From positions 1 to 32,000 of the forward strand of contig JAUWGH010000006.1 of the NCBI GenBank assembly GCA_030606485.1: a DNA stretch of 32,000 nucleotides, in the 5' to 3' direction. This document shows, piece by piece, positions 2,413 to 19,148 of this stretch. The notes beneath the pieces were generated by a model. That model did not search any database. It was not told the origin of the DNA and was given only the letters and a program-made list of their open reading frames with translations. A program made the position numbers and the translations under genes. This DNA is from Promethearchaeota archaeon (GTDB taxonomy: Archaea; Asgardarchaeota; Lokiarchaeia; Sigyniarchaeales; SOKP01). Each line of letters begins with the position of its first letter. Position 1 is the stretch's first letter.

Positions 2413-5400
2413 ATGAGAATAGATGAAGATTTCATTCTTGAAGAAATTAAGCAGAGAATAGATATTCAGTATTATTATAAAGTTCTTAAAGATAAAAAAG
2501 AGATTAAGCCGGAATGGATGCTTGAAGAACAGAAACCTGAAAGTTTAGTGGAGCAAATATTTTTAAATATATTGAGAATTTTAAAAATCCCCGAAAAACA
2601 AATCATTTCTCAGAATCGTGTTAAAACTTTTGATTTATATAAAGAAAAGAAATATCGCTATCCAGATTTTAAAATAATTAAACATCGAAAAAGCGAAAAA
2701 AATCTATTGATCGAGTTAGAACCATTCAATTCAGATATTCAAATTGGAATAAAACAAGCAAAAGAATGGATTCAAGATATCAATATCGGTTCATTTAATA
2801 ACGCCATGGCTATTAACTTGAGTAATTTCATATTAATTTTTTTTAACGGTAATACAGTTCGAGAAAAAGAGCTAAATATTGAAGAAGCATATAGTTATAT
2901 TTCAGATGTTGTTTTTGGAAAGAAAATAACGATTAATTTAGAGAAAATTAACAAGATAACTGAACAGTTTTATAACCAATTCTTCGCGTTAATACATGGT
3001 GGATCCTATATTAGCACCAAAGAAGAAAGAATTTCGATATCTGAAGAAAATTCTATTTTTAAAAACCTCTTATATGATGAAAAGTTACATGAATCTGAAA
3101 AAATTGAATTTTTATATACAATTTTCAATAGACTCATTTTTATTAAGATTTTAATGGATTGGGGGTCGATATTTAATCTTTTTGACTATCTGCGTCAAGT
3201 TCCAGAACATTTAATGCATACCGAATTAAATAATCTATTTTTTAAAACACTAGCTGTTAAAAAAGAAAATAGGGTTAATTTACCAAAAGAATTCGAGAAT
3301 GTTCCATTTTTAAATGGAGGTCTCTTTAGACTTACAAAAGTCGAAGAAGATAATCCTAATTTAATGATTGAAGCAAAATATTTACTAAAAATTTTCGAAT
3401 TTTTAGAAAAATATTCGTTTTTAGATAATGGAGCAGACGAATCTTCATTAAATAGTGAGATATTAGGTTACATTTTTGAAAAAACTATAAAATTTCGTAA
3501 AGGTACTGGTTCATATTATACTCATAATTTAATATGCGATTTTATTTGCGAAAATGTATTATATCCTCATTTACTTATCAGAATAAACGATTTTCTTAAG
3601 GCAAAAGGATACAAGGAAAGTGAGTTACTTGAGAATTTTGAAGAAATTTTTATGCTAAAAGAAAAGACATTACTAGGAGTTTACGAAAAAATTATAAAAA
3701 ATCTTAAAGTTTGCGACATTTGCGTTGGTTCAGGCGCTTTCTTGTTATCAATGGGTAATTTGTTATTAGAAGTTCATAAAAGAATACTAAAAACATTAAA
3801 TAAAGAAATAAATGAAACCAAAATTAAACATTATATTGTCGAATACAACTTATATGGCGTAGACTTGCTACTTTCTGCAATTCAAATATGTCAGTTAAGA
3901 TTATGGCTTTGGATCTCGGAAGATTCCGAAGAAATTATGCCTCTTCCAAATATTGAATATAACTTAAGAGTAGGAAATTCTTTACTGGGAACTGTATCCC
4001 AAATTAACATAAGCACAGTTAATTATCAATTTATTAACAAAATACAGGGCACTGATTTCCTAGACTTTAGCGATCCTAAAATTTCGAAAATTTTAGAAGA
4101 ATTAGAAAGTGGAGTAATTACTTTTTCTTCATTAAAGTCTCTTAAAACAACATTAATTGATCTTTATTTATACAGTCACGATAAAAATACTATTTTACTA
4201 AAGGATTTAATTGAAAGCCTAAACAATCTTATTGTTGATGACGCAGATAGAATTTATCTAAACACCCTAAATGATATTATTAATAAAAAAAACCTAAAAA
4301 ACAATCTGAATACAGAGTTCCTGAGAAGAATGAAAGCGTTTCATTGGTATTTAGAGTTCCCGCAAGTTTTTCCTAAAGGTTTTGATATTATTATTGGAAA
4401 TCCTCCTTATGTCTCAGTCAAATTTATGGAAAAAATCCCAATTGAACAAGATATACAATCCATAACTAAGAAGTTGAAAAAAAAAAGGAAAAAGATAAAA
4501 AAATTAAAATCTGAAAACACGATCGAAAAATATAAAGAGATTATAATATCATTGAAGAAAGAATTAAAAATAAAGGAAGTATTATTAGAAACTGATTATT
4601 ATAAACAAGAGAAAATCGATAATTCCTTATATAAGAATTTTCTTAAAAACAATTATAATTGGGCCTATAAAATCTATGACATATTAATTCCATTTTTTGA
4701 GAGAGGATTATCTCTACTAAAAAAAAATAACAAAACATATCTTAGTTTTATTACTTCAAATAAGTATTTAGCAACGGATTACGGCGTAAAAATTAGGGAG
4801 GCCTTTCTAAATAGTTACAACATCGAAATATTAGTTGATATATCCATGATAAAGGTGTTTAAAGATGCTGCAGTTTATCCAATTATTACTGTCTTAAGAA
4901 ATTTTAGTAAAAAGGAGGGTTCGATGATACAAGTAGGTAGATATTCGGATATAAATGAATTAGGAAGTTATTTACATCCTATAGAGCTGGTGAGATATAA
5001 TAACCAAGAAACTAATTATTTGATATATATTCCTCTTCACCTCGAATCGTTCGAATTATTTGATAAATTATATTACCATCCCAATTGTTCAACCGTTGGA
5101 AAAGGGTTTATAAATTGTTATCGAGAATTTGATTTTACACAATGGGGAAATTACGAAGTGTTTGTATCAGAAAATAGAGGAAAGAAATTAGGAGAGGATT
5201 ACTATAATTATATTACTAATAACGATATTTTCCCCTTCCAATTAAATCCTGTAAATCAATTCTATTTTTTAAGAGAAATTCCGAATTCAAAAAACCCAAA
5301 TAATTTAGAAATTGTAGAGGGAAAGTGGAATATTTTTCAAAACGAACTTCTTATGATAAGAGAGGTGGCTTTAGACTTAATGTGTGCCATTGGGAAAAAT

Positions 5401-5904
5401 TTTGCAAATATTGGAAAGATATACGCATTGAAATTAAACCCAAATTCAGACCTTAATTATTTATCCAATTACTATTTTCTGGCTTTATTTAATTCTAAAT
5501 TATTAGATTTTTACTTTAGGGTTATGTTTTGGAATACACATTTAAGTGGAGGTTATTTAAATTTTCACTTTAGCTATCTGTCTCTACTTCCTGTTCTTAG
5601 AATAGATTCAAAATCGTTGGTGTATAAGCAAATTGTATTTTTTTCAAAATTGCTTTCCATGAAATACATAGATTTGGTAAAAATATTATTAGATTTATTG
5701 ATCTTAAAAGCTCACTTTCCAAATGATTTAGATCTAAAAGATATAGACCTTACCTTTTTAGAAGCTTTTCTTGATATACAATTAACCGATGAAATTATAG
5801 AAAATGTCTTAATAGAATTAAGAAAAATTGAAAGTGAAGTTAATAAATTAGCTCAAAACAATTTATATCAAATAATGGTTAAAGAACGGCAATTTGAAAA
5901 ATAA
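2413..5904 (+). CDS. Type IIG (Eco57I-like) restriction-modification fusion: N-terminal nuclease, N6-adenine methyltransferase and C-terminal target-recognition region
   Basis: GSYYT, CDICVGSGAFL (SAM-binding motif I), NLYGVDL and GFDIIIGNPPYV (motif IV); N-terminal YPDF…IELEP nuclease-like motif; C-terminal ALFNSKLLDFYF pattern typical of TaqI-like TRDs. Confidence 0.85.
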   Translation: MRIDEDFILEEIKQRIDIQYYYKVLKDKKEIKPEWMLEEQKPESLVEQIFLNILRILKIPEKQIISQNRVKTFDLYKEKKYRYPDFKIIKHRKSEKNLLIELEPFNSDIQIGIKQAKEWIQDINIGSFNNAMAINLSNFILIFFNGNTVREKELNIEEAYSYISDVVFGKKITINLEKINKITEQFYNQFFALIHGGSYISTKEERISISEENSIFKNLLYDEKLHESEKIEFLYTIFNRLIFIKILMDWGSIFNLFDYLRQVPEHLMHTELNNLFFKTLAVKKENRVNLPKEFENVPFLNGGLFRLTKVEEDNPNLMIEAKYLLKIFEFLEKYSFLDNGADESSLNSEILGYIFEKTIKFRKGTGSYYTHNLICDFICENVLYPHLLIRINDFLKAKGYKESELLENFEEIFMLKEKTLLGVYEKIIKNLKVCDICVGSGAFLLSMGNLLLEVHKRILKTLNKEINETKIKHYIVEYNLYGVDLLLSAIQICQLRLWLWISEDSEEIMPLPNIEYNLRVGNSLLGTVSQINISTVNYQFINKIQGTDFLDFSDPKISKILEELESGVITFSSLKSLKTTLIDLYLYSHDKNTILLKDLIESLNNLIVDDADRIYLNTLNDIINKKNLKNNLNTEFLRRMKAFHWYLEFPQVFPKGFDIIIGNPPYVSVKFMEKIPIEQDIQSITKKLKKKRKKIKKLKSENTIEKYKEIIISLKKELKIKEVLLETDYYKQEKIDNSLYKNFLKNNYNWAYKIYDILIPFFERGLSLLKKNNKTYLSFITSNKYLATDYGVKIREAFLNSYNIEILVDISMIKVFKDAAVYPIITVLRNFSKKEGSMIQVGRYSDINELGSYLHPIELVRYNNQETNYLIYIPLHLESFELFDKLYYHPNCSTVGKGFINCYREFDFTQWGNYEVFVSENRGKKLGEDYYNYITNNDIFPFQLNPVNQFYFLREIPNSKNPNNLEIVEGKWNIFQNELLMIREVALDLMCAIGKNFANIGKIYALKLNPNSDLNYLSNYYFLALFNSKLLDFYFRVMFWNTHLSGGYLNFHFSYLSLLPVLRIDSKSLVYKQIVFFSKLLSMKYIDLVKILLDLLILKAHFPNDLDLKDIDLTFLEAFLDIQLTDEIIENVLIELRKIESEVNKLAQNNLYQIMVKERQFEK

Positions 5905-6127
5905 AGATGAATGAAATGGCTATTATTAACTCAATTTTTTTAAGAACTGATAAAAAATTATAAGATTTAAATATTCAAAATATTTATGTTATTATTAATC
6001 TTTATGATTTTTACTCAAATTCAAATAAGCTTAATAAAGAAATGACTCTAATCCTAAATCATAAGTGGATTAAACTAATTGAAAATATATGTAGATTAAG
6101 CTAAAATTTGAAAAGATTCTACTAATC

Positions 6128-6976
6128 TTAATAGTTTATAATTAAAACCTCTTTAATTTGTCCTCTACCCGAAGCATCTGAATTTATAGCTCTTCTTGCA
6201 TAAACTGTTTTTAAATCATATTTTTTATACAAATCTAAAATAAATTCATTATAGGAATTACTTAACATAACTTTACATCCACGATTATCTAACTCTTCAT
6301 AAACTTTAAACAATCTCACTTGATCTTCTTTATTAAAATTCTCTTTGGTATAACTAGTAAAATTAGCAGTAGTCGAAATTGGTTGATATGGAGGGTCAAA
6401 ATAGATAAAATCATCCTTTTCTGCAAAATCAAGACAAATTTCAAAATCTGAATTGATAATTCTAACTCCTTTTAACACTTGATATACAGTTTTTAAATTT
6501 TTTTCATCACAAATATTTGGGTTTCTATATCTTCCATAGGGAACATTAAATTCTCCCTTACTATTTACCCTATACAATCCATTGAAGCATGTCTTGTTAA
6601 GATATATCATGCGAGCTGCTCTTTCTATATTTGAAAGATTTATAAATTTTTTAGGATTTTTATCAATATGTCGAATCTTATAATAAAATTCTTTATTATT
6701 ATTTTTTTTATGTACTTTCAATAATTTAATTAATTTATCAACATTATCTTGAATTACTTTATAGATATTTATTAATTCTTCATTAAGATCAATTAAAAAA
6801 GCTTCTTTTGGTAATAGATAAAAAAATAGGGCACCGCCTCCCAAAAAAGGTTCTATATATTTATTAATTCCTTTAGGGAGATATTTATCTATTTGACTTA
6901 ATAATTGTCTTTTCCCTCCAGCCCATTTTAAAATTGGATAAACTTTAGAAAAATCTTGAATAAGAAATTCTTTCAT
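6128..6976 (-). CDS. dam: Dam/DpnIIA-family DNA adenine methyltransferase (probably GATC)
   Basis: PILKWAGGK, YIEPFLGGGALFF, YLNKTCFNGLYRVN, FNVPYG and YFDPPY motifs. GATC specificity is inferred from the family. Confidence 0.9.
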   Translation of the reverse strand: MKEFLIQDFSKVYPILKWAGGKRQLLSQIDKYLPKGINKYIEPFLGGGALFFYLLPKEAFLIDLNEELINIYKVIQDNVDKLIKLLKVHKKNNNKEFYYKIRHIDKNPKKFINLSNIERAARMIYLNKTCFNGLYRVNSKGEFNVPYGRYRNPNICDEKNLKTVYQVLKGVRIINSDFEICLDFAEKDDFIYFDPPYQPISTTANFTSYTKENFNKEDQVRLFKVYEELDNRGCKVMLSNSYNEFILDLYKKYDLKTVYARRAINSDASGRGQIKEVLIINY

Positions 6977-7150
6977 TTTCTGATATTTTATTTATTTTTT
7001 CAGTATCCATATTCGCTATCAAATTTTAAATATGAATATTCATCGAGAAAAAGATTCTCAAATATTTTTTATTTTTAAAATTAATAAAGTTTTTTGTTAA
7101 GATCTCTGAAAATAATTATATTTTTTAAATACTCCGAAAAAATGACTTAT

Positions 7151-8038
7151 CTATTCAAGTTTCCACTTATGCAACCGAGTAATAAAACCACTTTCAAGCA
7201 TCCAGATTTCAGCTTCGCCACTAACCACTTGTAAAATGCTTTCAATAAAAAGAATATTGAATAGAAACCATAAACGATCTATTTCTTTTTTTATCTGTGT
7301 AACTTTTTCGTTATCTTTAGTAAAAAATGGAGTTAAATCCTGCTGTACAGCATTACTCTTAGGATCACCTAAAGGAAAAATAAACTTAACAATTGCGGTT
7401 GTTTCATCTATGATATATTTTTCAGCTTTTTTTTGAATTTCTGCAACTTCTTCAAAAGATTTTAAAGTACTTGCCCTAAATCGCCCTTGAAAATGTCCAA
7501 TCGAATATCCAATAAATTTATTTGAAATCCAATTACAAATTCTTTCATAATATTGATCATTAGTTTCATTTTCTTTTGAAGGAAAAAATGCTTTAATTTT
7601 TTCAATAGGAGTTTTTTTCAGACGATTAATGATTGCATCTTTGTAAAATAAAGAATCTAATGAAGATCTAAGATTTCCTTCATTTGTTAATGGCATATAA
7701 AATTCATAGATAGTAACAGTTTCATATCTCTCTTTTATAAAATCATCACGCATTCTTCGAGTTTGTGAAAAATGTCTCTTGAATTTATTAAAAGATGATA
7801 AATTTCTAAAAGTTTCACCCACTTGATATTTATCTTTCTCATGCTCAAGTAATAATGGTTTAAAAATTTTTGTAAAATAAGTATTAAAAGTAGATTCTTT
7901 ATCCCACTGAGTAATATTTTTCAAGTCTTCTTTGGTAAAATATTCACTAGTTTGATATTTCTCTCTGAAAAAATTAAAAACTTTCTTGATACTAGTATCA
8001 GAATTATATTTTTCATTTTTTAAATTCAAAATTATCAC
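7151..8038 (-). CDS. Hypothetical protein, 295 aa, possible N-terminal winged helix; candidate defence gene
   Basis: Long ORF with a GTG start, directly upstream of and co-oriented with dam. FTKEDLKNITQWDKESTFNTYFTK…KYQV resembles an HTH with wing. No catalytic motif recognised. Confidence 0.7.
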   Translation of the reverse strand: MIILNLKNEKYNSDTSIKKVFNFFREKYQTSEYFTKEDLKNITQWDKESTFNTYFTKIFKPLLLEHEKDKYQVGETFRNLSSFNKFKRHFSQTRRMRDDFIKERYETVTIYEFYMPLTNEGNLRSSLDSLFYKDAIINRLKKTPIEKIKAFFPSKENETNDQYYERICNWISNKFIGYSIGHFQGRFRASTLKSFEEVAEIQKKAEKYIIDETTAIVKFIFPLGDPKSNAVQQDLTPFFTKDNEKVTQIKKEIDRLWFLFNILFIESILQVVSGEAEIWMLESGFITRLHKWKLE

Positions 8039-9209: not shown

Positions 9210-10487
9210 ATGGTCAGAGATAAACCAATTCTTTTTGAAAGATTTCCAAACTTAAAGGATAGGATTCCATGGGTCGCTATAGGCAAATATCCGACTCCTG
9301 TTCAAAAGATGGAAAATTTAGGAAAGGAGCTTGGGCATAATAACCTATGGATTAAAAGGGATGATATAAGCACCGATTTCTATGGTGGAAATAAAATCAG
9401 AAAATTCGAATTTGTTTATGGGAAATTTTTAAAGTCTGGAAAAAAAATCGTTGCAACTGCTGGTGGCATAGGCACAAACCACGGATTAGCAGCTGTATTT
9501 GTTGGGAATAAATTTGGATTGAAAACACGATTATATTTATTTCCTCAACCTTTAACGTGGCATGTTCAGCGTTCATTATTATTATATCATCATCTTGGTG
9601 CAAAGATTATATTTGTAAAAGGTATTTATAGATTAGTACTTAAACTTCTAGGATTAAGATTATTTAAACGAAAATATTATTTAATGCTTTTTGGAGCCTC
9701 ACCTCTGTTGGGTATTGGTACTTCCCTCGGAACATTAGGTTTTGTAAATGCAGCTTTTGAATTAAAAAAACAAATAGATGCTGGAGAGATACCTGAGCCA
9801 GATCATATCTTTGTACCATGTGGTTCTACGGGGACTGCGGCAGGTTTAATTGCTGGATGTAAAATTACTGGATTAAAAACAAAAATTAGACCAGTTAGAG
9901 TAGCTGATGCAATCGTAATAAACACTAAAAATATTGCGAGAACTGCAAATAAGGTTATTAAACTTTTACGCAAATATGATAAGTCCGTTCCTGATATTAT
10001 AATAAATGAAAGTGATTTTGATTTAGAAATAGATTATTATGGCTCAAATTACGGTGTTAAAACTAAGCGTGGTCAGGCAGCTGTTGATAAAATTTATGAA
10101 TTAGAAGGAAAACAGAAAGATTTCAAAATTGAAACAACTTATACTGGAAAAACATTAGCAGCGATGATTGATTTTGCAAAACAACCCGAAAATAAAGAAA
10201 AAGTTCTATTATTTTGGAACACCTATAACTCAGTCTCATTAGATGATCATTTGAAAAAGACAAATTTTAACTATACCCAACTTCCTAAAAAATTTCACAA
10301 ATTTTATGAAACATCTTTTCAATGCTGGAGAATAAAAAAGTGTTTAGAGCAAAAGAGGAAAAAATGTCCCTCTTATTTATGTGATGAATATCGATGTTGG
10401 AAAGTTAAAGTATGCTCTGAACAAGAGAGAAAGAATTGCATCGCGTATAACCAATTAAAAGATATTATAAAGCTTGAAGATGCATAA
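9210..10487 (+). CDS. PLP-dependent D-cysteine desulfhydrase / ACC deaminase family enzyme with a C-terminal Cys-rich extension
   Basis: LWIKRDD…GGNKIRK (PLP Lys), GGIGTNH, VPCGSTGTAAG, ETTYTGK and LFWNT; the last ~55 aa hold two CW-x4-C-x7-C-x2-Y repeats. Confidence 0.85.
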   Translation: MVRDKPILFERFPNLKDRIPWVAIGKYPTPVQKMENLGKELGHNNLWIKRDDISTDFYGGNKIRKFEFVYGKFLKSGKKIVATAGGIGTNHGLAAVFVGNKFGLKTRLYLFPQPLTWHVQRSLLLYHHLGAKIIFVKGIYRLVLKLLGLRLFKRKYYLMLFGASPLLGIGTSLGTLGFVNAAFELKKQIDAGEIPEPDHIFVPCGSTGTAAGLIAGCKITGLKTKIRPVRVADAIVINTKNIARTANKVIKLLRKYDKSVPDIIINESDFDLEIDYYGSNYGVKTKRGQAAVDKIYELEGKQKDFKIETTYTGKTLAAMIDFAKQPENKEKVLLFWNTYNSVSLDDHLKKTNFNYTQLPKKFHKFYETSFQCWRIKKCLEQKRKKCPSYLCDEYRCWKVKVCSEQERKNCIAYNQLKDIIKLEDA

Positions 10488-10578: not shown

Positions 10579-10878
10579 ATGGGTAAAAAAAAAACCGTAG
10601 AAAAAGAAGAAGAAATTGATGACATTCCAGATCAAGAGGAAATAAATTTAGAAGAATGGGACGATGATTTAGAAGAGGAAACCTATGAGGATCTAAGTAA
10701 AATTAAAGATGAGATGCTGGCAGATGAGACTGATAAAGAAAAATCGGGGCGTTCAGCAAGTGAAATTGAAAAAATGTTGAAGGCTACAATTTGTGTAAAT
10801 TGTTCGGGAAGTAGTTCAAAGAGAAATTGTAAGATTAGAACCGAATATGGTTGTCCACCGGATAAAGCTAACAAATAA
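10579..10878 (+). CDS. Small acidic protein with a C-terminal four-Cys motif
   Basis: D/E-rich N-terminal half followed by CVNC-x8-C-x7-C; ATG start and clean intergenic context. Confidence 0.7.
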   Translation: MGKKKTVEKEEEIDDIPDQEEINLEEWDDDLEEETYEDLSKIKDEMLADETDKEKSGRSASEIEKMLKATICVNCSGSSSKRNCKIRTEYGCPPDKANK

Positions 10879-11007: not shown

Positions 11008-12006
11008 ATGCTTTCGAAAAATAGTAAAAGAATAATATTAATTACTGTGGATATTTTCTTTTCTGCTTTTATCTTTTATGTCAATGCATCTTGGAAAAAT
11101 CCTATTTATACATGTTTTATATTATCCCTTACAACTTTTCTAATTGTATTAATTCCATTTGAAGTTTATTGGAGTTTTCGTGATATATGGTTTGATAGAT
11201 GGAATAAGATTAACCTAAAAAATATACACGTGGAAAAAATAAGCATTTCTGTTGAAGGGGGATCTTTATCTGGTGCAATATATCAATTGAAAATTTCTAA
11301 TTCAACTCATTTATCTCAAAATAAACCCATAATCATAATATCCCCGGGATTTTCAGATCTAAAAGAAGATTTAGAATATTTTTTCCTTCCAATCGTAAAT
11401 TCTGGTTATCCAGTTCTTGCTTATGACGCTCGTGGTACTGGTGAATCTAAAAAAGTAGGAAAAAAAGCTGATATTAAGAATAGAATTAATGATTTTTTAC
11501 ATATTGTGAGATGGATTCAAAAAAATGATAAGTTAGGCAATAAAGAGATTTATACAGCCGGATTTAGTATAGGTGCGTTGACCATTTTATGTGGAGGTTT
11601 TCCTTTAGAAGAAATTAAAAAAATATTTGCAGTATCTGCAATTGCTGATTTTAGAGAAAATATTCCTCATTTTAATCCAATTGTGTGGCTTCGATATTTC
11701 TTTAAAGGAATACACCAATTTCCCAACGAAGAAACCAATTTAGCAATATCTCCTTATCATGTGATTAAAAACTTTAAAACTCAAAATTTTTCTGGTTCCG
11801 AGGCTAAATGGAAAGAATTCACCAAAAAAGTAATGTTAGTTCATGCAAAAAACGATAGAATCGTAAAATTTAAGAATTTTATAAAAAATAAAGCATTGTT
11901 GGAGTTATCAGAAAAAAATACTTTAGTTTTTAAAAAGGGAGGTCATTTGCTTAAAAAGAATGAATTGTCTATAGTTACTTATGCTTTGAATTTCTTTAAA
12001 AATTAA
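11008..12006 (+). CDS. Membrane-anchored alpha/beta-fold serine hydrolase
   Basis: Two N-terminal hydrophobic helices; SPGFSD oxyanion region, YDARGTGES, GFSIG nucleophile elbow, AKNDRIV (Asp) and GGHL (His). Confidence 0.85.
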   Translation: MLSKNSKRIILITVDIFFSAFIFYVNASWKNPIYTCFILSLTTFLIVLIPFEVYWSFRDIWFDRWNKINLKNIHVEKISISVEGGSLSGAIYQLKISNSTHLSQNKPIIIISPGFSDLKEDLEYFFLPIVNSGYPVLAYDARGTGESKKVGKKADIKNRINDFLHIVRWIQKNDKLGNKEIYTAGFSIGALTILCGGFPLEEIKKIFAVSAIADFRENIPHFNPIVWLRYFFKGIHQFPNEETNLAISPYHVIKNFKTQNFSGSEAKWKEFTKKVMLVHAKNDRIVKFKNFIKNKALLELSEKNTLVFKKGGHLLKKNELSIVTYALNFFKN

Positions 12007-13168
12007 AATTTACAACTGCTTTAATTGTTTCTCTTACTATCTCTATTGTTTTATTGATATTATCAATTTTTTTATTAAAATAGACTTGGTTGCTTTTGCA
12101 TTTCTCAATTTCTTCTAAAAGATTAAAAAATTGTTTATCACATTCTAATTCAAATGTGAATGTTTTAGGTCTTTGAGTAGAATGTCCCAAGCATACAAAA
12201 CATCCATGATCTTCTGGGTGAAGAAATGCTGGTTGTCTTATATCCCACATGAGATCTTTCAATTTACTTTGAACATTTCTTGCAATTGATCTGCAAAAAT
12301 CACCGCTCTTGTAATTATAAATATAAGCAAAGGGCAATTTGTCATTATTTTTCTCCCAAGCTTCTTTTAAATTCTCTCTTAATTGTTCCCCTTGGTTAAT
12401 GGTAATATTAAAATGATGATGATCTAAATCTGGATGGGGTTTCACAAATAATGGTTCTCTTTTAGGCAAAACTTCTCTTTTTACGAGATATTCAACAATC
12501 CACATTTTATAATAATGTTCTAATTTGTAGAAAGCATTTAAATTTTTAACCATATCCTCTGTAAATCTTCTTAATAATGAAGTTTCATGAAAATCGATTA
12601 AATATATCTCGAGATCCCTCTCCCAGTATTCCTGAATAAAATTTTTAAAGACTAAAGCATTTTCCGGAATAATATATGGGTTATTGTCCTCATCTTTCTC
12701 TATATAATTTGAAATAAAAGTCTTCCTCCAATATCTATTTAAATTGTCACCATTTTTCAAATAATAACCGGATTTATTATCAGGTCGAGGGTTTAAAAAA
12801 CCATAAGGGTTCATTAATGGAAAAAATATCATCATCGAAGACTCCGGCTCTTTAGGAAGAAATTCACTATTATTTGTCGAGATTAATCCATATAGATAGG
12901 ATATCTGTCCAAAAAGCCCGCAATACTCATTATGTTGGGATCCAACCATGATATATACTTTTTTTAATTGGTCTAAGCTTTTTGGCTTATTAATCGTTAA
13001 TACAGGTATTTTTCCATCTGAAATTTCTAGAAATACAAGTTCAATGAGATCATTTTTATTAAAATTGTCAAAGATTTCATAAATTTCTTTTAATAAATTG
13101 TTTCTATCTTCTGGATTTAAAATCTTTTTTAAGATATTTGCATCAATATAATAATCTAATTTATTCAA
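11996..13168 (-). CDS. M14-like (carboxypeptidase / AstE-AspA-type) zinc metallopeptidase or amidohydrolase
   Basis: GSQHNE, PLMNPYGF, NGDNLNRYW, IDFHET and late FTFELE match M14-clan motifs, although the first Zn motif is HxE rather than HxxE. The TTG start overlaps the upstream stop by 8 bp. Confidence 0.7.
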   Translation of the reverse strand: MNKLDYYIDANILKKILNPEDRNNLLKEIYEIFDNFNKNDLIELVFLEISDGKIPVLTINKPKSLDQLKKVYIMVGSQHNEYCGLFGQISYLYGLISTNNSEFLPKEPESSMMIFFPLMNPYGFLNPRPDNKSGYYLKNGDNLNRYWRKTFISNYIEKDEDNNPYIIPENALVFKNFIQEYWERDLEIYLIDFHETSLLRRFTEDMVKNLNAFYKLEHYYKMWIVEYLVKREVLPKREPLFVKPHPDLDHHHFNITINQGEQLRENLKEAWEKNNDKLPFAYIYNYKSGDFCRSIARNVQSKLKDLMWDIRQPAFLHPEDHGCFVCLGHSTQRPKTFTFELECDKQFFNLLEEIEKCKSNQVYFNKKIDNINKTIEIVRETIKAVVNFNF

Positions 13169-14552
13169 TTAACCTACTCCAATCTGAAAAATTAATAATT
13201 TTATAATAATTTTCGGTGATGCTTTTAAAAAGTACGCATCCAATACAAAACATATCAACAAAATCCTCATCAGAGAGGTTCAATATATCTCTTGTTCTTG
13301 GTGATATGGCTAATGCACGATCTGCCTCAATGTTTCCATTATAACCACTTAAATTAACCACAAACTCCTGTTTATTCAATGTTCCTCCATAAGAATTACG
13401 CGCAATTCTAACCAAACCACCAATTGGAATTATTTTTCCTTCTTTTTGACTCAAATATATTCTGATATCAAAAGTGTGATTTCCATTTCTCCAATTAATT
13501 AAGGAGAAATTTGCCATTTCCATAATTGTGTAGGGATATGGATCCCGATTTTTAAGAAATTTTCCGAAAAATTCATCTTTACTTTTTTTAATAATCTTTT
13601 TAAAATTAGAGGGATCTTCGTCAGAACTAATAGGAATAATACCTGCTCCACCAGATCCACCACTTGGCTTGATAATAAAATTTGTTTTGTAATTTTTAAC
13701 AACAAAATCCATTTTTTTCAATAAATCCTCTTCATTCATTCCTTTACTAAACATCAAATATTTTACTCGATATTTTTCTAACTTACTTTTAGCAAAATAT
13801 TCAGCCAAATAAGTTAAAGATTTATCATCTGTAATAAAAAAAATCGGATTGACAATAATTGTATTAATTTTTCGAAAATCTTCTCTCATTAATCGCTTAA
13901 AATCTTCATCTTCTATCCTACGAGCAATTCCATCTCCGATTAATAAATTTATTTTTTGATCTTTATACATAACCCAATTATCTCTAAATGAGATATTCAA
14001 GGCTATATTTCTATAATCTGTGATAAAAAATGCCACATCTTCAGTAAAAAATCCTTTAACATTTAATTCAGTATAAATATTGACGCTATATCCGATTTCT
14101 AATATTTTTTTTTTCAAATATTCTAATAGAAAAATCTTTTCATGAAGCAGCGCATCATTAATAGGCGTGCCAACTAAAATAAAGAGCTTATTATCTTCTC
14201 TTTTATTGTTTTTTAAGGAATTTTTTATGGCTTGTAAATATCCATCATATAACAATCCTTGTTGTTTAGATGTTATGATTGAAAGACCTCTTGATGAGCC
14301 TCCATTGGTCTCAAGTATGAAAAATCTTTTACGCCCATTATTTTCTTCTACCATAAAATCAATAGCCCCAGCATAAAACATTTCTTTCTCAATTAAATAA
14401 TTCTCCTTTGATTTCTCCAGTTTTTTTAATGCCCTTTCTCTGAGTTTATCAGCGTATTTATCATCCTGTGATTCTCTCAATGATTTAAATGATATTAAAT
14501 TTACACCAAAATATTTACCTAATTCAATTAAATCTGAATCATCTAAGTTCAA
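13161..14552 (-). CDS. Circularly permuted ATP-grasp amide/peptide ligase
   Basis: The metal-binding motif AIDFMV…FILETNGGSSRG is at the N-terminus. TDDKSL, IIKPSGGSGGAGI, FDIRIY, GGLVRIA and VVNLS follow in the order seen in circularly permuted type-2 ATP-grasps (DLRPF…GGLTRVA…VVNSS). Confidence 0.8.
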   Translation of the reverse strand: MNLDDSDLIELGKYFGVNLISFKSLRESQDDKYADKLRERALKKLEKSKENYLIEKEMFYAGAIDFMVEENNGRKRFFILETNGGSSRGLSIITSKQQGLLYDGYLQAIKNSLKNNKREDNKLFILVGTPINDALLHEKIFLLEYLKKKILEIGYSVNIYTELNVKGFFTEDVAFFITDYRNIALNISFRDNWVMYKDQKINLLIGDGIARRIEDEDFKRLMREDFRKINTIIVNPIFFITDDKSLTYLAEYFAKSKLEKYRVKYLMFSKGMNEEDLLKKMDFVVKNYKTNFIIKPSGGSGGAGIIPISSDEDPSNFKKIIKKSKDEFFGKFLKNRDPYPYTIMEMANFSLINWRNGNHTFDIRIYLSQKEGKIIPIGGLVRIARNSYGGTLNKQEFVVNLSGYNGNIEADRALAISPRTRDILNLSDEDFVDMFCIGCVLFKSITENYYKIINFSDWSRLIE

Positions 14553-14591
14553 TTGTTTTCCCCAAAATATTTCAAATATAAAAAAAAAATT

Positions 14592-15833
14592 TTACAGATA
14601 TAAATACCCCTGATAATTTCCCTTGACGGAGAGCCTAAGACTTCCTATTACGATCTTTTTAATTTTAATTTGCTCCTTATAATTAAAATCTGAATACAAA
14701 AGAAAATAGTGTTTCTCAGTATTTATGTTAAAAAGAAGCCCTATATTAATTAGTTCATTCTTTTCGGTTTTTAAAGCAATAATTACATAATGATAAGGTA
14801 ATTTTACCAATTCTTCTAAATATAATTGTTTTTCGATAATTTTCTCATTTTCCAAGTCATACTCCTCTTTAATCAGAATTATCTCATTAAAAGGAACAGT
14901 AATTTTGCGAAATTGTTCAAAAACCATGGCAAATTGCCTTTGTCTTAAAAACCGGCGATCTTCTTTAGTTCTTTCAAAATAATATTTATTTTCAGCATCT
15001 ATTAAAAAGATTTTAGGTTTTGAACTGAGTTTTTTTATATCTTTCTCAATTTCCTCTAACTCTTTTACTTCCTTGTTTTTAAATATGATAGCATAATCTG
15101 GTTGAATCATAGAAGTAAAATATTTTTTATAAAGTATACCAGTTTCTGTCTTGATCCAGCCATCTGTATCAATAAGAATAAATCGAATTTCTTTATTTTT
15201 CTTGCAAAATTCTTCAATTAATTCTTTAGAATAATGTGGTAAGATATATTTCAAGTCAGCTTTTGGAAACGTAGAACCAATAAATTTTGTGTCTTTAGAA
15301 AGAAAATCTTGAGTTGATAAAATATGTGAATCTATCATTCCAATATTAATCGTTGTGGGAATATACATCTGCTGTTGCCCTAAATCTGAATCTAAATATC
15401 CTCCCTTTAAACCCTCTGCTAATAATTTATTGGCTAAATATTTAATAATTGTCGTTTTCCCGCTGCTAAGACCTAATACCATTATTTTTACTGGTGTAGT
15501 ACTGGTCGATTTTTTAATATCTTCAATAATTTTATTAGAAATTTTAGCCCAACTTTCTGGAATCGAATTATCCTCCAATTCAATAACCTGGTCTTCATTC
15601 GCCACATAAATATCAATTTCAGAATCTTCCAAAAATAATAAAGGATACCTTATACCGGTTGTAATAATTATTACATTAGGATCTTTTTTATTCGGTTCTA
15701 AAAGATCTATTCTTTCTCTTTTGCCTTTAACCTTTATAACTTTTCCAAAAATCTCAACTTCTCCATTTAATAATGCGGCCTTAGAAGGTCCAGCTAATAA
15801 AATTGATTGCCCTTTTTTGTATTTTTTTATCAT
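14592..15833 (-). CDS. Clp1/Grc3/Nol9-family polynucleotide 5'-hydroxyl kinase
   Basis: N-terminal beta-sandwich-like segment (ILLAGPSKAALLNGEVEIFG), P-loop GLSSGKTT, DSDLGQ, IDTDGW and lid RRFLRQRQF. Confidence 0.85.
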   Translation of the reverse strand: MIKKYKKGQSILLAGPSKAALLNGEVEIFGKVIKVKGKRERIDLLEPNKKDPNVIIITTGIRYPLLFLEDSEIDIYVANEDQVIELEDNSIPESWAKISNKIIEDIKKSTSTTPVKIMVLGLSSGKTTIIKYLANKLLAEGLKGGYLDSDLGQQQMYIPTTINIGMIDSHILSTQDFLSKDTKFIGSTFPKADLKYILPHYSKELIEEFCKKNKEIRFILIDTDGWIKTETGILYKKYFTSMIQPDYAIIFKNKEVKELEEIEKDIKKLSSKPKIFLIDAENKYYFERTKEDRRFLRQRQFAMVFEQFRKITVPFNEIILIKEEYDLENEKIIEKQLYLEELVKLPYHYVIIALKTEKNELINIGLLFNINTEKHYFLLYSDFNYKEQIKIKKIVIGSLRLSVKGNYQGYLYL

Positions 15834-15912: not shown

Positions 15913-16356
15913 TCACATTTTAATTTCCAAAACTTTAAAAATTTCACTAAATCCAAATTTAGTAAATAAATTACTTGCGCCTTCATCTAACTCCGTTTTA
16001 ACAATGATTCTTACAGAATTAATATGGTTCCTTTTAAAGAAATCAATCGAATATCTTATTAATTCTTCCCCTAAACCTTCTCCTCTATAACTTGGATCAA
16101 CTATTAAGTTTGAAATATTTCCAAATAAAAATCCAAAATTTGTTTTTCTAATAGAAATCAAAGCCATCCCTGCGACCTTGTTTTTCATCTCGTTAATCGC
16201 AACTATCATTTCATTCTTAACATCTTTCTTAAATTCCGCTATTAATGAGTGCTTCCAACGTTCCTCGTCAAATTCTTGATTTGTTATTGAACATAATTGT
16301 TTCATTAAATTAGTGATTTCTTCTGTATCTTTCTCCGTAAATGCACGAATTTGCAT
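15913..16356 (-). CDS. GNAT-family N-acetyltransferase
   Basis: Acetyl-CoA-binding motif A NLIVDPSYRGEGLG and C-terminal ASNLFTKFGF; 147 aa. Confidence 0.85.
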   Translation of the reverse strand: MQIRAFTEKDTEEITNLMKQLCSITNQEFDEERWKHSLIAEFKKDVKNEMIVAINEMKNKVAGMALISIRKTNFGFLFGNISNLIVDPSYRGEGLGEELIRYSIDFFKRNHINSVRIIVKTELDEGASNLFTKFGFSEIFKVLEIKM

Positions 16357-18182: not shown

Positions 18183-19148
18183 TTACTTCTCCCTCCACTC
18201 TGTCCCGCATTTTCCACACCTATATTTCTTGCCATATACTCTTGGGTAATCCATTATGATGTTATTTTTGTCAATGGTCTCATGAATCATATACTTAAGT
18301 TCCTCGCCACATTTGGGGCATTTACGCCGTCCAATGGGTTTTTCTACTGTTAAAATCCCAGTATCAACATCCATTGCAGTTGGGGTAGGGGGTTCTTTTA
18401 TAGGTTCTATTACCATTTCAGGTTCCTTTACTGGTTCAGGCTCAGGTTCTTTTACCGGTTCAGAGACTTCTTCTTTCTCTAATGCAGATTCTGCAGAAAA
18501 TTGTACATGTTCATCAACAGAGGTCTCAACTTTTTCTTCGAAAATTTTCATAAATTCTGAGTCGTCACCTTCCTCAAAAATAACTTCATTTTGTGATCCT
18601 GCTCTCTCAGCATCAAAACTTCTTGCCCATTGTCCGGCTTTTACTTTTTCTTTAACATTAGTATTCGCACCTTGCCAAATATAAATTTTATCGCCTAAAT
18701 CTGCAATAAAACAATCTTCAGAATCTAAACTTTCTTTTTTAAAGGGTACTTGGATAAATTTCATGGTATTTATATCTTCAAACTCTTCAGAAGAGACTCT
18801 ATAGAGTGTGTTTACATGCTCTCCCGCACCTGACCAATCACCAGTGTCTACATCAATGAGCATAGTCTTTGCTAAATTTTTATCTACGATTTTCATTCCT
18901 CCAACAAGTTGCAAAAACTCTTTAATCTCTTGACCTTGGTCAAGAGTGATGATTTTTGCAGCACCACCTCTTTTTCCATCCAATTCTCTAGCTTTCATTG
19001 CCGCAAATGTTTTTTCATCTACTGAACAATATTTGCCAAGCCATATATAAATTGTTTTTTCATCATCAACAATATAAGTATCTCCAGAGGAAAATATTGG
19101 CTTATTTACTTCCTTTAATTCACCCTTAGCAACTATATATATTTTCAT
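18183..19148 (-). CDS. Two-domain gelsolin (Asgard 2DGel-like actin regulator) with a Glu/Pro linker and C-terminal Zn ribbon
   Basis: Two gelsolin-repeat signatures, FSSGDTYIVDDEKTIYIWLGKYCSVDEKTFA and LDSEDCFIADLGDKIYIWQGANTNVKEKVKA; EPVKEP repeats; CPKC…CGKC. Confidence 0.88.
   Translation of the reverse strand: MKIYIVAKGELKEVNKPIFSSGDTYIVDDEKTIYIWLGKYCSVDEKTFAAMKARELDGKRGGAAKIITLDQGQEIKEFLQLVGGMKIVDKNLAKTMLIDVDTGDWSGAGEHVNTLYRVSSEEFEDINTMKFIQVPFKKESLDSEDCFIADLGDKIYIWQGANTNVKEKVKAGQWARSFDAERAGSQNEVIFEEGDDSEFMKIFEEKVETSVDEHVQFSAESALEKEEVSEPVKEPEPEPVKEPEMVIEPIKEPPTPTAMDVDTGILTVEKPIGRRKCPKCGEELKYMIHETIDKNNIIMDYPRVYGKKYRCGKCGTEWREK
18390..18475 (-). repeat. Imperfect coding repeat, EP(V/I)KEP x3, in the gelsolin linker
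   Basis: The protein reads SEPVKEPEPEPVKEPEMVIEPIKEPP; the + strand DNA shows recurring ggttc…ttt(t)a…ggttc units. Confidence 0.6.

Follow-up and report, generated by a model that had tools for sequence, protein, structure and literature searches.

A linked pair of genes in Lokiarchaeia encoding a predicted circularly permuted ATP-grasp ligase and a divergent M14-clan hydrolase

Two neighboring genes on the minus strand of a 32,000-nucleotide stretch of contig JAUWGH010000006.1 (Promethearchaeota archaeon, assembly GCA_030606485.1; the whole stretch is called the window below) appear to encode a carboxylate-amine ligase of the circularly permuted ATP-grasp type and a zinc hydrolase that belongs to the M14 clan by fold. 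When both genes are present in a genome, they are invariably adjacent and in the same order, and this arrangement recurs in three Lokiarchaeial gene contexts, which supports a conserved module. We propose that the pair makes and breaks one kind of amide bond on a small soluble metabolite, a proposal to which we give an even chance of being right. An earlier note, made from the letters of the window, had predicted a reversible module for the ligation and removal of amino acids on proteins or a small metabolite, analogous in its logic to the tubulin code. The elements of the pair are as follows.

13161..14552, minus strand: predicted circularly permuted ATP-grasp carboxylate-amine ligase, 463 amino acids, TTG start (open reading frame, homologue alignment, AlphaFold2 [AF2] model, Foldseek, VIA-align)
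11996..13168, minus strand: predicted divergent M14-clan zinc hydrolase, 390 amino acids, TTG start (open reading frame, homologue alignment, AF2 model, VIA-align, hhalign)
13161..13168, minus strand: stop/start overlap TTGAATAA, 8 bp (direct sequence reading)
14574..14583, minus strand: TATA-like TTTTATATTT, a possible promoter element (sequence reading)

Both open reading frames lie where the earlier note had placed them, in DNA with a local G+C content of 27%, and its description of an 8-bp overlap, TTGAATAA, between the ligase stop and the hydrolase TTG start was accurate. The ligase ends in S-R-L-I-E followed by TAA at 13163-13161, while the TTG of the hydrolase occupies 13168-13166, an arrangement indicating that the two genes are translationally coupled. 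A Shine-Dalgarno-like GGAG at 13180-13177 lies 8 nucleotides 5' of this TTG. The start is credible because the earliest in-frame ATG, at codon 74, would cut into conserved sequence, and because the nearest orthologues begin at the same position in the homologue alignment. The TTG start of the ligase has GGGG ahead of it, and the 39-bp spacer that separates this start from the stop codon of an upstream Clp1-type gene contains the TATA-like TTTTATATTT, which could serve as the pair's own promoter. Each protein has homologues, hundreds in all, with E values down to 1e-290, and so both open reading frames are real genes and not chance ones. At its 3' end, the hydrolase gene overlaps a convergent alpha/beta-hydrolase gene (11008-12006, plus strand) by 11 bp (11996-12006). 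The sequencing runs that contain this stretch are all of DNA, from cold-seep, marine-sediment, subsurface, and vent metagenomes, and no RNA run is listed among them.

The ligase contains each of the motifs that had been quoted for it, and nearly every residue in these motifs is invariant among 50 aligned homologues. A Mg/ATP motif, D65...E81-T-N83, is found near the N-terminus, followed by KPSGGSGG at residues 295-302 (K295), FDIRIY at 361-366 (D362 and R364), GGLVRIA at 378-384 (R382), and VVNLS at 398-402 (N400). D65, E81, and N83 precede K295, G298-G304, D362/R364, and N400, and all of these positions are invariant. An AF2 model built with the family alignment has a predicted local distance difference test score (pLDDT) of 84 and a predicted template modeling score (pTM) of 0.87. 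The modeled fold is that of an ATP-grasp enzyme, as judged by a Foldseek probability of 1.00 and by VIA-align Z scores of 10 to 16 against many members of the superfamily. The top Foldseek matches are the glutathione and homoglutathione synthetases of humans, plants, and yeast (E of ~1e-10), followed by 3n6x, 3k1t, YjfC/YgiC, Cp1B, and GspS. VIA-align ranks 3k1t, a T. ferrooxidans-type GshA (PF08886), first with a Z score of 15.9, and it places the eukaryotic glutathione and homoglutathione synthetases at 12-14, YjfC/YgiC at ~12, GspS/TryS at ~11, and Cp1B at 9.8. Identity to these permuted structural relatives is 8-15%, with template modeling (TM) scores of ~0.4-0.5. The fold and feature neighbors of the ligase in Atlas are circularly permuted type-2 ATP-grasps, GSP_synth, and GshA (TM ~0.53), and its language-model features point to GshA and GSP_synth. 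By sequence identity, the top structural matches are ArgX/LysX (17%, Z 11).

The earlier note had also called the ligase circularly permuted, and two lines of evidence agree with this. One is the motif order described above. The other is that permuted ATP-grasps are collinear with the model over its residues 2-422 (its residues 42-453 in the alignment with 3k1t), whereas the match to canonical ones (ArgX/LysX, Ddl, TTL, and PurT; Z ~10) is confined to residues ~120-450 and ends before their own C-terminal ExN region. Together, these observations confirm, at the level of the model, a circularly permuted ATP-grasp of the eukaryotic glutathione synthetase kind. Profile methods were less informative: hhalign sets IDFMV...LLETNGG of the ligase on iDi...lEvN of RimK solely after rotation of the alignment, and then as a weak alternative alignment (E 0.07), and a RimK-type hidden Markov model run with HMMER scored 8-14 bits on natural and rotated sequences alike and is too insensitive for this purpose.

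By sequence, the ligase falls into no named family, although it belongs to the ATP-grasp superfamily and its topology places it in the permuted assemblage. Searches of Pfam and NCBIfam returned only sub-threshold ATP-grasp matches over residues 242-385. There was no match at E <= 0.1 to PF04174 or PF14403 (CP_ATPgrasp_1/2) or to PF03133 (TTL), none to the Pfam family GSP_synth or to PF03199, and none that reached threshold for PF03917, PF08886, or PF02955. Sequence-profile searches of the PDB likewise gave no meaningful match for the ligase or the hydrolase family. The ligase family is a small orphan clade: when 1.84 billion representatives were searched exhaustively with its profile, only 93 relatives were recovered.

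The claim that the second gene encodes an M14-like metallopeptidase is confirmed at the level of the modeled fold, with one departure in the zinc motif. The AF2 model (pLDDT 87.5) superimposes on CPA4/CPB with a VIA-align Z score of 21.7 over 260 residues (root mean square deviation of 3.2 A), placing residues 3-390 on residues 5-307 of CPA4, and Foldseek matches it to M14 carboxypeptidases with an E value of 5e-8. The bacterial structures 4a37 and 4b6z, which resemble cytosolic carboxypeptidases (CCPs), score 20.0. In the alignment of 55 homologues, the zinc motif reads A-Q78-H79-N80-E81-Y-N-G, which is HxE in place of the HxxE of the clan. Alignment by hhalign with canonical Asgard M14 proteins (HHARE), and with an AstE-like partner of a distant ligase in locus L057, sets H79 on the zinc histidine and puts a one-residue deletion before the glutamate; the L057 partner reads SAQHGDEWNG where the window hydrolase reads AQH-NEYNG. 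The hydrolase is thus in the M14 clan by fold, yet outside a strict HxxE definition. The sequences NLN144-R145-xW and DFH194ETS and the residue E342 are invariant in the family, and their order and spacing are those of M14 enzymes. H194 is a candidate for the second zinc histidine and E342 for the catalytic glutamate, or general base. In carboxypeptidase A (CPA), an N-R pair binds the free terminal carboxylate of the substrate, and N144/R145 would correspond to this pair in motif and spacing.

Other features set the hydrolase apart from described families. It is ~80 residues longer than CPA, and it has an additional cluster of histidines and cysteines (H250, H252, C292, H317, and C323) that is invariant within the main family only. 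The window protein has no match to Pfam PF00246 even at E <= 10 and none in NCBIfam, whereas a homologue that is 39% identical to it (P0220) passes the Peptidase_M14 model with 26.5 bits against a cut-off of 21.6; other homologues score 13-15 bits. No match was found to PF18027, the N-terminal beta-sandwich of CCPs. The AstE/AspA model PF24827 does not match the window hydrolase, although the orthologue in locus L009 matches weakly (E 0.021), and the AstE-like partners of distant ligases align weakly to the window hydrolase family (hhalign E 0.006).

A survey of 301 Asgard genomes across the phylum shows how closely the two genes are linked. Of the 68 genomes surveyed in the window's own family, 63 have the ligase and 42 have the hydrolase. 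The ligase is also present in one of seven genomes from the sister family and was not found elsewhere in the survey. The earlier note had named conservation of the pair in Asgard genomes as a check on its proposal, and in every genome with both genes (43 of 43), the hydrolase match lies directly downstream on the same strand, at ~70 bp or less. The distance is ~25 bp or less in all but one of these, G077, where the contig stops 90 bp past the hydrolase start. In the relatives for which the locus was inspected, the two open reading frames are spaced by -20 to +22 bp. Outside the window's own family, the pair is kept in two further loci. In L009, genes for a pyruvoyl arginine decarboxylase and a deoxyhypusine-synthase-like protein precede it on the same strand, with 212 bp separating them from the ligase; in L035, it lies between EF-1alpha and phosphoesterase/HD genes. 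The genes downstream of the ligase in these two loci match the hydrolase profile (hhalign E of 7e-30 and 3e-35, respectively). A search for fused ligase-hydrolase proteins or other longer forms found none, which is weak evidence. A complex prediction for the two proteins gave a score of 0.12 against a mark of 0.32 and is not weighed for or against an interaction.

The hydrolase is a faithful but dispensable partner because about a third of the ligase-bearing genomes have lost it. Some 22 of them have no hydrolase match, and two more have only fragments. These genomes are mostly from one genus (7 of 28 positive), with some from a second, and in five such loci the hydrolase gene has been cleanly deleted, with the ligase on one side and the conserved, convergent gene for an alpha/beta-hydrolase on the other still intact. 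The ligase of hydrolase-less genomes retains all of its motifs. In our reading, the ligase is the essential partner and the hydrolase an accessory, dropped in several lineages.

The closest homologues of both proteins all come from Asgard metagenome-assembled genomes labeled Promethearchaeota or Lokiarchaeota. These source names and the eukaryote-like genes nearby support the Asgard origin that the earlier note had judged probable. A two-repeat gelsolin is encoded in the window at 18183-19148. On another contig of the same genome, a longin and an Arf/Roc-type GTPase (L060:14969-16393) lie near an RtcB-like gene described below, which also fits an Asgard origin.

Additional insight comes from the neighborhoods of distant ligase relatives (20-45% identity). 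An AstE/AspA-type deacylase of the M14 clan is encoded directly beside the ligase in L057 (Pfam E 2.5e-27) and L018 (8.5e-17), and in L056 the gene after the ligase encodes an Asp/Glu racemase. Two loci look bacterial. In one (L054:2571-5403), overlapping tandem ligase paralogues (43% identity) precede an MFS-like gene, and in the other (L036:6001-8025), the ligase is fused to a GPP34 (Golgi phosphoprotein 3-like) domain and is accompanied by two Ddl-like ligases and MFS transporters. Some loci of distant ligases have no informative neighbors. The racemase of L056, the Ddl-like ligases and MFS exporters of L036, and the arginine decarboxylase and deoxyhypusine-synthase-like protein of L009 suggest small-molecule pathways.

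Genes for translation and RNA processing also recur around the ligase. SecE-NusG-L11-L1 genes lie near it in L057, as do EF-1alpha, S7, and S10 in L035, where the pair is inserted between EF-1alpha and S10 of a conserved ribosomal gene string. A cluster for ubiquitin, an E2 (UQ_con), and an E1 (ThiF) is located ~4 kb from that pair (L035:1-2402). A protein of ~400 residues that resembles RtcB and has no Pfam match adjoins the ligase in L018 and L057 and is encoded within 2-4 kb of it in L009 and L035. Its copies are as follows; those beside the ligase relatives share 31-49% mutual identity.

L018:2221-3420: RtcB-like copy
L057:3132-4358: RtcB-like copy
L035:11223-12431: RtcB-like copy
L009:1013-2230: RtcB-like copy
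G000:C1:94827-96035 (L060:7825-9069), minus strand: RtcB-like copy of the window's genome, on another contig, beside MetRS

The motifs KPNACGM, GNHF, HGS, HQG, and PHGGGY, the Atlas features, and an hhalign comparison with the canonical RtcB of the genome (probability 79%, E 1.7e-5), which is a separate protein (L059:988-2460), indicate that this family is probably a divergent RtcB-superfamily enzyme. Two candidate relationships that involve it were rejected. The 399-residue gene after the ligase in L018 was considered as a hydrolase orthologue and belongs instead to the RtcB-like family. Co-variation of the RtcB-like gene with the ligase was also considered, and the gene proved to be present in 141 of the 301 genomes, including many families that do not have the ligase.

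Our preferred reading is that the pair acts on a small soluble metabolite. It is favored over a protein tail because all of the characterized nearest structural relatives of the ligase (GshA, glutathione synthetase, GspS, YgiC/YjfC, and Cp1B) are small-molecule amide ligases, with products that are N-acyl-amino acids, peptides, or polyamine conjugates, and because the partners of distant ligases are small-molecule deacylases of the AstE/AspA type. Cp1B, for instance, makes epoxysuccinyl-amino acids (PMC12568646). The chemistry, the substrate, and the direction of regulation that we infer would be as follows. The ligase would use ATP to phosphorylate a carboxylate, forming an acyl-phosphate, and would couple it to the amino group of an amino acid or amine to yield an N-acyl-amino acid or short peptide with a free terminal carboxylate. 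The co-translated hydrolase may then anchor this carboxylate through N144/R145 and cleave the adjacent amide bond, with zinc held by H79, E81, and H194 and with E342 as the general base. The substrate would most likely be a dipeptide-like or N-acyl-amino-acid metabolite, the level of which the hydrolase could tune, recycle, or proofread. Of the two acceptors that the earlier note had allowed, protein or small metabolite, the evidence leans toward the metabolite. Its idea of a reversible module keeps a plausible chemistry through N144/R145, but an obligate cycle of writer and eraser is unlikely, given that roughly one in three genomes with the ligase has a decayed hydrolase or none.

Several observations weigh against a metabolite make-and-break pair. 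The HxE zinc motif is noncanonical and could mean that the hydrolase has altered or absent activity. A ligase coupled 1:1 to a hydrolase that reverses it looks futile unless the two are regulated or act on different molecules. The recurrent translation and RNA-processing neighbors (Clp1, the RtcB-like gene, EF-1alpha/S7/S10, and L11/L1) would fit a protein target, as in the case of RimK and S6. Fold similarity at TM ~0.5 and 10-16% identity does not fix the substrate class of the ligase. Finally, the genome, which is 100% complete, yielded no clear biosynthetic partner for a known thiol, whether GshA, GCS2 (a 36-residue fragment match only), PF04262, or PF08886; a search of it with PF03917 also gave no match, but control genomes gave none either, and so that result is uninformative.

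The protein-directed form of the earlier proposal is in our view unlikely but retains a real chance. Under it, a protein of the translation or RNA-processing machinery would receive one or more amino acids from the ligase, on an acidic side chain or C-terminus, and would lose them again to the M14 enzyme. There are precedents in RimK, LysX, and TTL/TTLL, which modify ribosomal protein S6, LysW, and tubulin, respectively, and bacterial circularly permuted type-2 ATP-grasps were reportedly predicted by Iyer and colleagues in 2009 to modify proteins. The chemistry fits, since an ATP-grasp enzyme is paired with a carboxypeptidase-like one that keeps N144/R145. The recurrence of Clp1 in the own family, of the RtcB-like gene in four contexts, and of EF-1alpha/S7/S10 and SecE-NusG-L11-L1 in L035 and L057 points the same way, as does the rank of ArgX/LysX as the top structural matches by identity. 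However, the likeness to TTL is nonspecific, with a Z score of ~10 on the non-permuted core and no Pfam TTL match, the closest characterized structures act on small molecules, and the operon has no conserved gene for a candidate acceptor. As for the RtcB-like gene, it is common across the phylum, shows no co-variation with the ligase, and in the window's genome has no linkage to it. The loss of the eraser from about a third of ligase-bearing genomes speaks against tagging too. The bolder form of this idea, an Asgard-specific reversible C-terminal tagging of a translation or RNA-processing component that is tied functionally to Clp1 and the divergent RtcB-like enzyme, we regard as distinctly doubtful. 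If true, a tagging pair would be a prokaryotic counterpart of the tubulin and RimK codes, drawn from a lineage of enzymes that are not known to modify proteins.

Conjugation of a polyamine, in which agmatine, spermidine, or a similar amine is the acceptor for a carboxylate such as that of a peptide or amino acid and the hydrolase acts as an amidase, seems improbable to us. In its favor, the model is structurally collinear with GspS, TryS, and YgiC/YjfC (Z 10-12.6), the first two of which have an amidase fused to them that undoes the ligation, and the pair in L009 follows genes for a pyruvoyl arginine decarboxylase and a deoxyhypusine-synthase-like protein. That context, however, occurs in one lineage only and with the 212-bp gap ahead of the ligase, GSP_synth does not match the ligase, and N144/R145 suggests a leaving group with a free alpha-carboxylate, which polyamines do not have. 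Slightly less probable again is sequential editing, whereby the M14 enzyme takes a C-terminal residue off a peptide or protein and so exposes a carboxylate that the ligase extends with a different residue, or else the M14 protein is a noncatalytic, substrate-binding partner. A two-step pathway would avoid the futility of a synthetase coupled 1:1 to a hydrolase, and the HxE zinc motif is noncanonical. Nevertheless, the ligase is intact in many hydrolase-less genomes and therefore does not depend on prior trimming, and the invariance of all other catalytic positions in the hydrolase argues for an active enzyme. That the ligase is an archaeal orthologue of glutathione synthetase or gamma-glutamylcysteine ligase is very improbable indeed. 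The best Foldseek matches (the eukaryotic glutathione synthetases), the best VIA-align match (3k1t), and Atlas features that include GshA clusters favor such a role; against it, TM scores are only ~0.4-0.5, PF03917, PF08886, and PF02955 give no threshold match, the complete genome has no clear enzyme for the other step, and the ligase family is confined to one anaerobic sediment lineage.

Comparison with known systems places the metabolite reading in context. The ligase shares with other permuted ATP-grasps (3k1t; 2hgs; GspS/TryS; YgiC/YjfC; CP_ATPgrasp_1/2, as in 3n6x; and fungal Cp1B, 9cjn) a topology in which the Mg-binding ExN hairpin lies ahead of the ATP core, and it presumably shares their acyl-phosphate route of carboxylate-amine ligation. 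Unlike them, it falls outside their Pfam and NCBIfam models and comes with neither a fused CHAP amidase nor a second glutathione enzyme. Bacterial circularly permuted type-2 ATP-grasps usually occur with alpha-E, transglutaminase, and Anbu peptidase genes. The earlier note had reported these to be absent, and none was found among the window proteins scanned, which cover 1-21.4 kb (open reading frames of 21.5-32 kb are outside the scan). The hydrolase matches M14 carboxypeptidases (CPA/CPB, CPT, and 4a37/4b6z) over the full length of the fold (Z 20-21.7) and has candidates for their N-R pair, DFH histidine, and C-terminal glutamate, but it has HxE and no Pfam match. The distant-ligase partners are bona fide AstE_AspA_cat proteins.

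The analogy to the tubulin code holds for chemistry and logic: TTL/TTLL and CCPs (M14D) pair the same two enzyme superfamilies to add and remove a C-terminal amino acid. It does not extend to specific kinship. TTL is not permuted and matches only the ligase core (residues 122-450, Z ~10), no better than Ddl or LysX do, and CCPs are not nearer to the hydrolase than CPA is (Z 20.0 versus 21.7). Neither tubulin nor any other acceptor is implicated for the window pair. The resemblance is one of chemistry, with no homology beyond the superfamily level, and the finding at present has no bearing on the origin of the tubulin code. A nearer parallel is GspS, a permuted ATP-grasp amide ligase that is, as we propose for the window ligase, tied genetically to a hydrolase of the same bond class, although in GspS the hydrolase is a fused CHAP amidase and here it is a separate M14-clan polypeptide. 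The NAGGN trio (the GNAT-ATP-grasp Ngg, AsnO, and an M42 hydrolase) is another case of a ligase tied to a hydrolase, a comparison that draws on a weak GNAT match; the window hydrolase is M14, not M42.

Two genes upstream of the pair form its immediate surroundings.

14592..15833, minus strand: Clp1-type P-loop polynucleotide kinase (Pfam CLP1_P, 1.6e-28)
15913..16356, minus strand: GNAT acetyltransferase (Pfam Acetyltransf_1, 4.4e-13; weak rimI-like NCBIfam match)

Among the 15 own-family loci in which the ligase is included, 14 have Clp1 as its immediate upstream neighbor, whereas Clp1 is absent around the pair in L009 and L035. It is therefore context and not part of the core module, since it is upstream in the own family but not in other lineages. 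The GNAT acetyltransferase gene, a variable upstream neighbor found in about half of the related loci, is also context only. On the other side, the alpha/beta-hydrolase gene that converges on the pair has a family-wide neighbor, a gene for a 99-residue protein (10579-10878, plus strand) with a very acidic N-terminal two-thirds, a cysteine-rich C-terminus (CVNC...C...C), and no family match. Beyond it, a PLP-dependent (PALP-fold) enzyme (9210-10487, plus strand) carries a C-terminal extension of ~90 residues rich in cysteine and Lys/Arg (CWRIKKC...CPSYLC...CWKVKVC...C), which is unusual for its family. The region 2413-8038 resembles a defense island, with an Eco57I/MmeI-type Type IIG restriction-modification gene (1163 residues), a Dam-type D12 methylase (6128-6976), and an unassigned gene for a 295-residue protein (7151-8038).

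The pair had been presented as undescribed, and our literature searches, directed at it or at any Asgard ATP-grasp paired with a carboxypeptidase, returned no paper. Apart from one hydrolase homologue, P0220, neither family is recognized by a Pfam or NCBIfam model. With the ligase, the few known permuted ATP-grasps, among them eukaryotic glutathione synthetase, an enzyme of unclear origin, gain an archaeal branch, and the hydrolase suggests that HxE can replace HxxE in an M14 zinc site. The recurring nearness of Clp1 and the RtcB-like gene hints at a link to RNA or translation. Study of the pair should reveal either a new metabolite in Lokiarchaeia of sediments, for example a compatible solute, a thiol, or a signaling dipeptide, or, less likely, a new protein modification.

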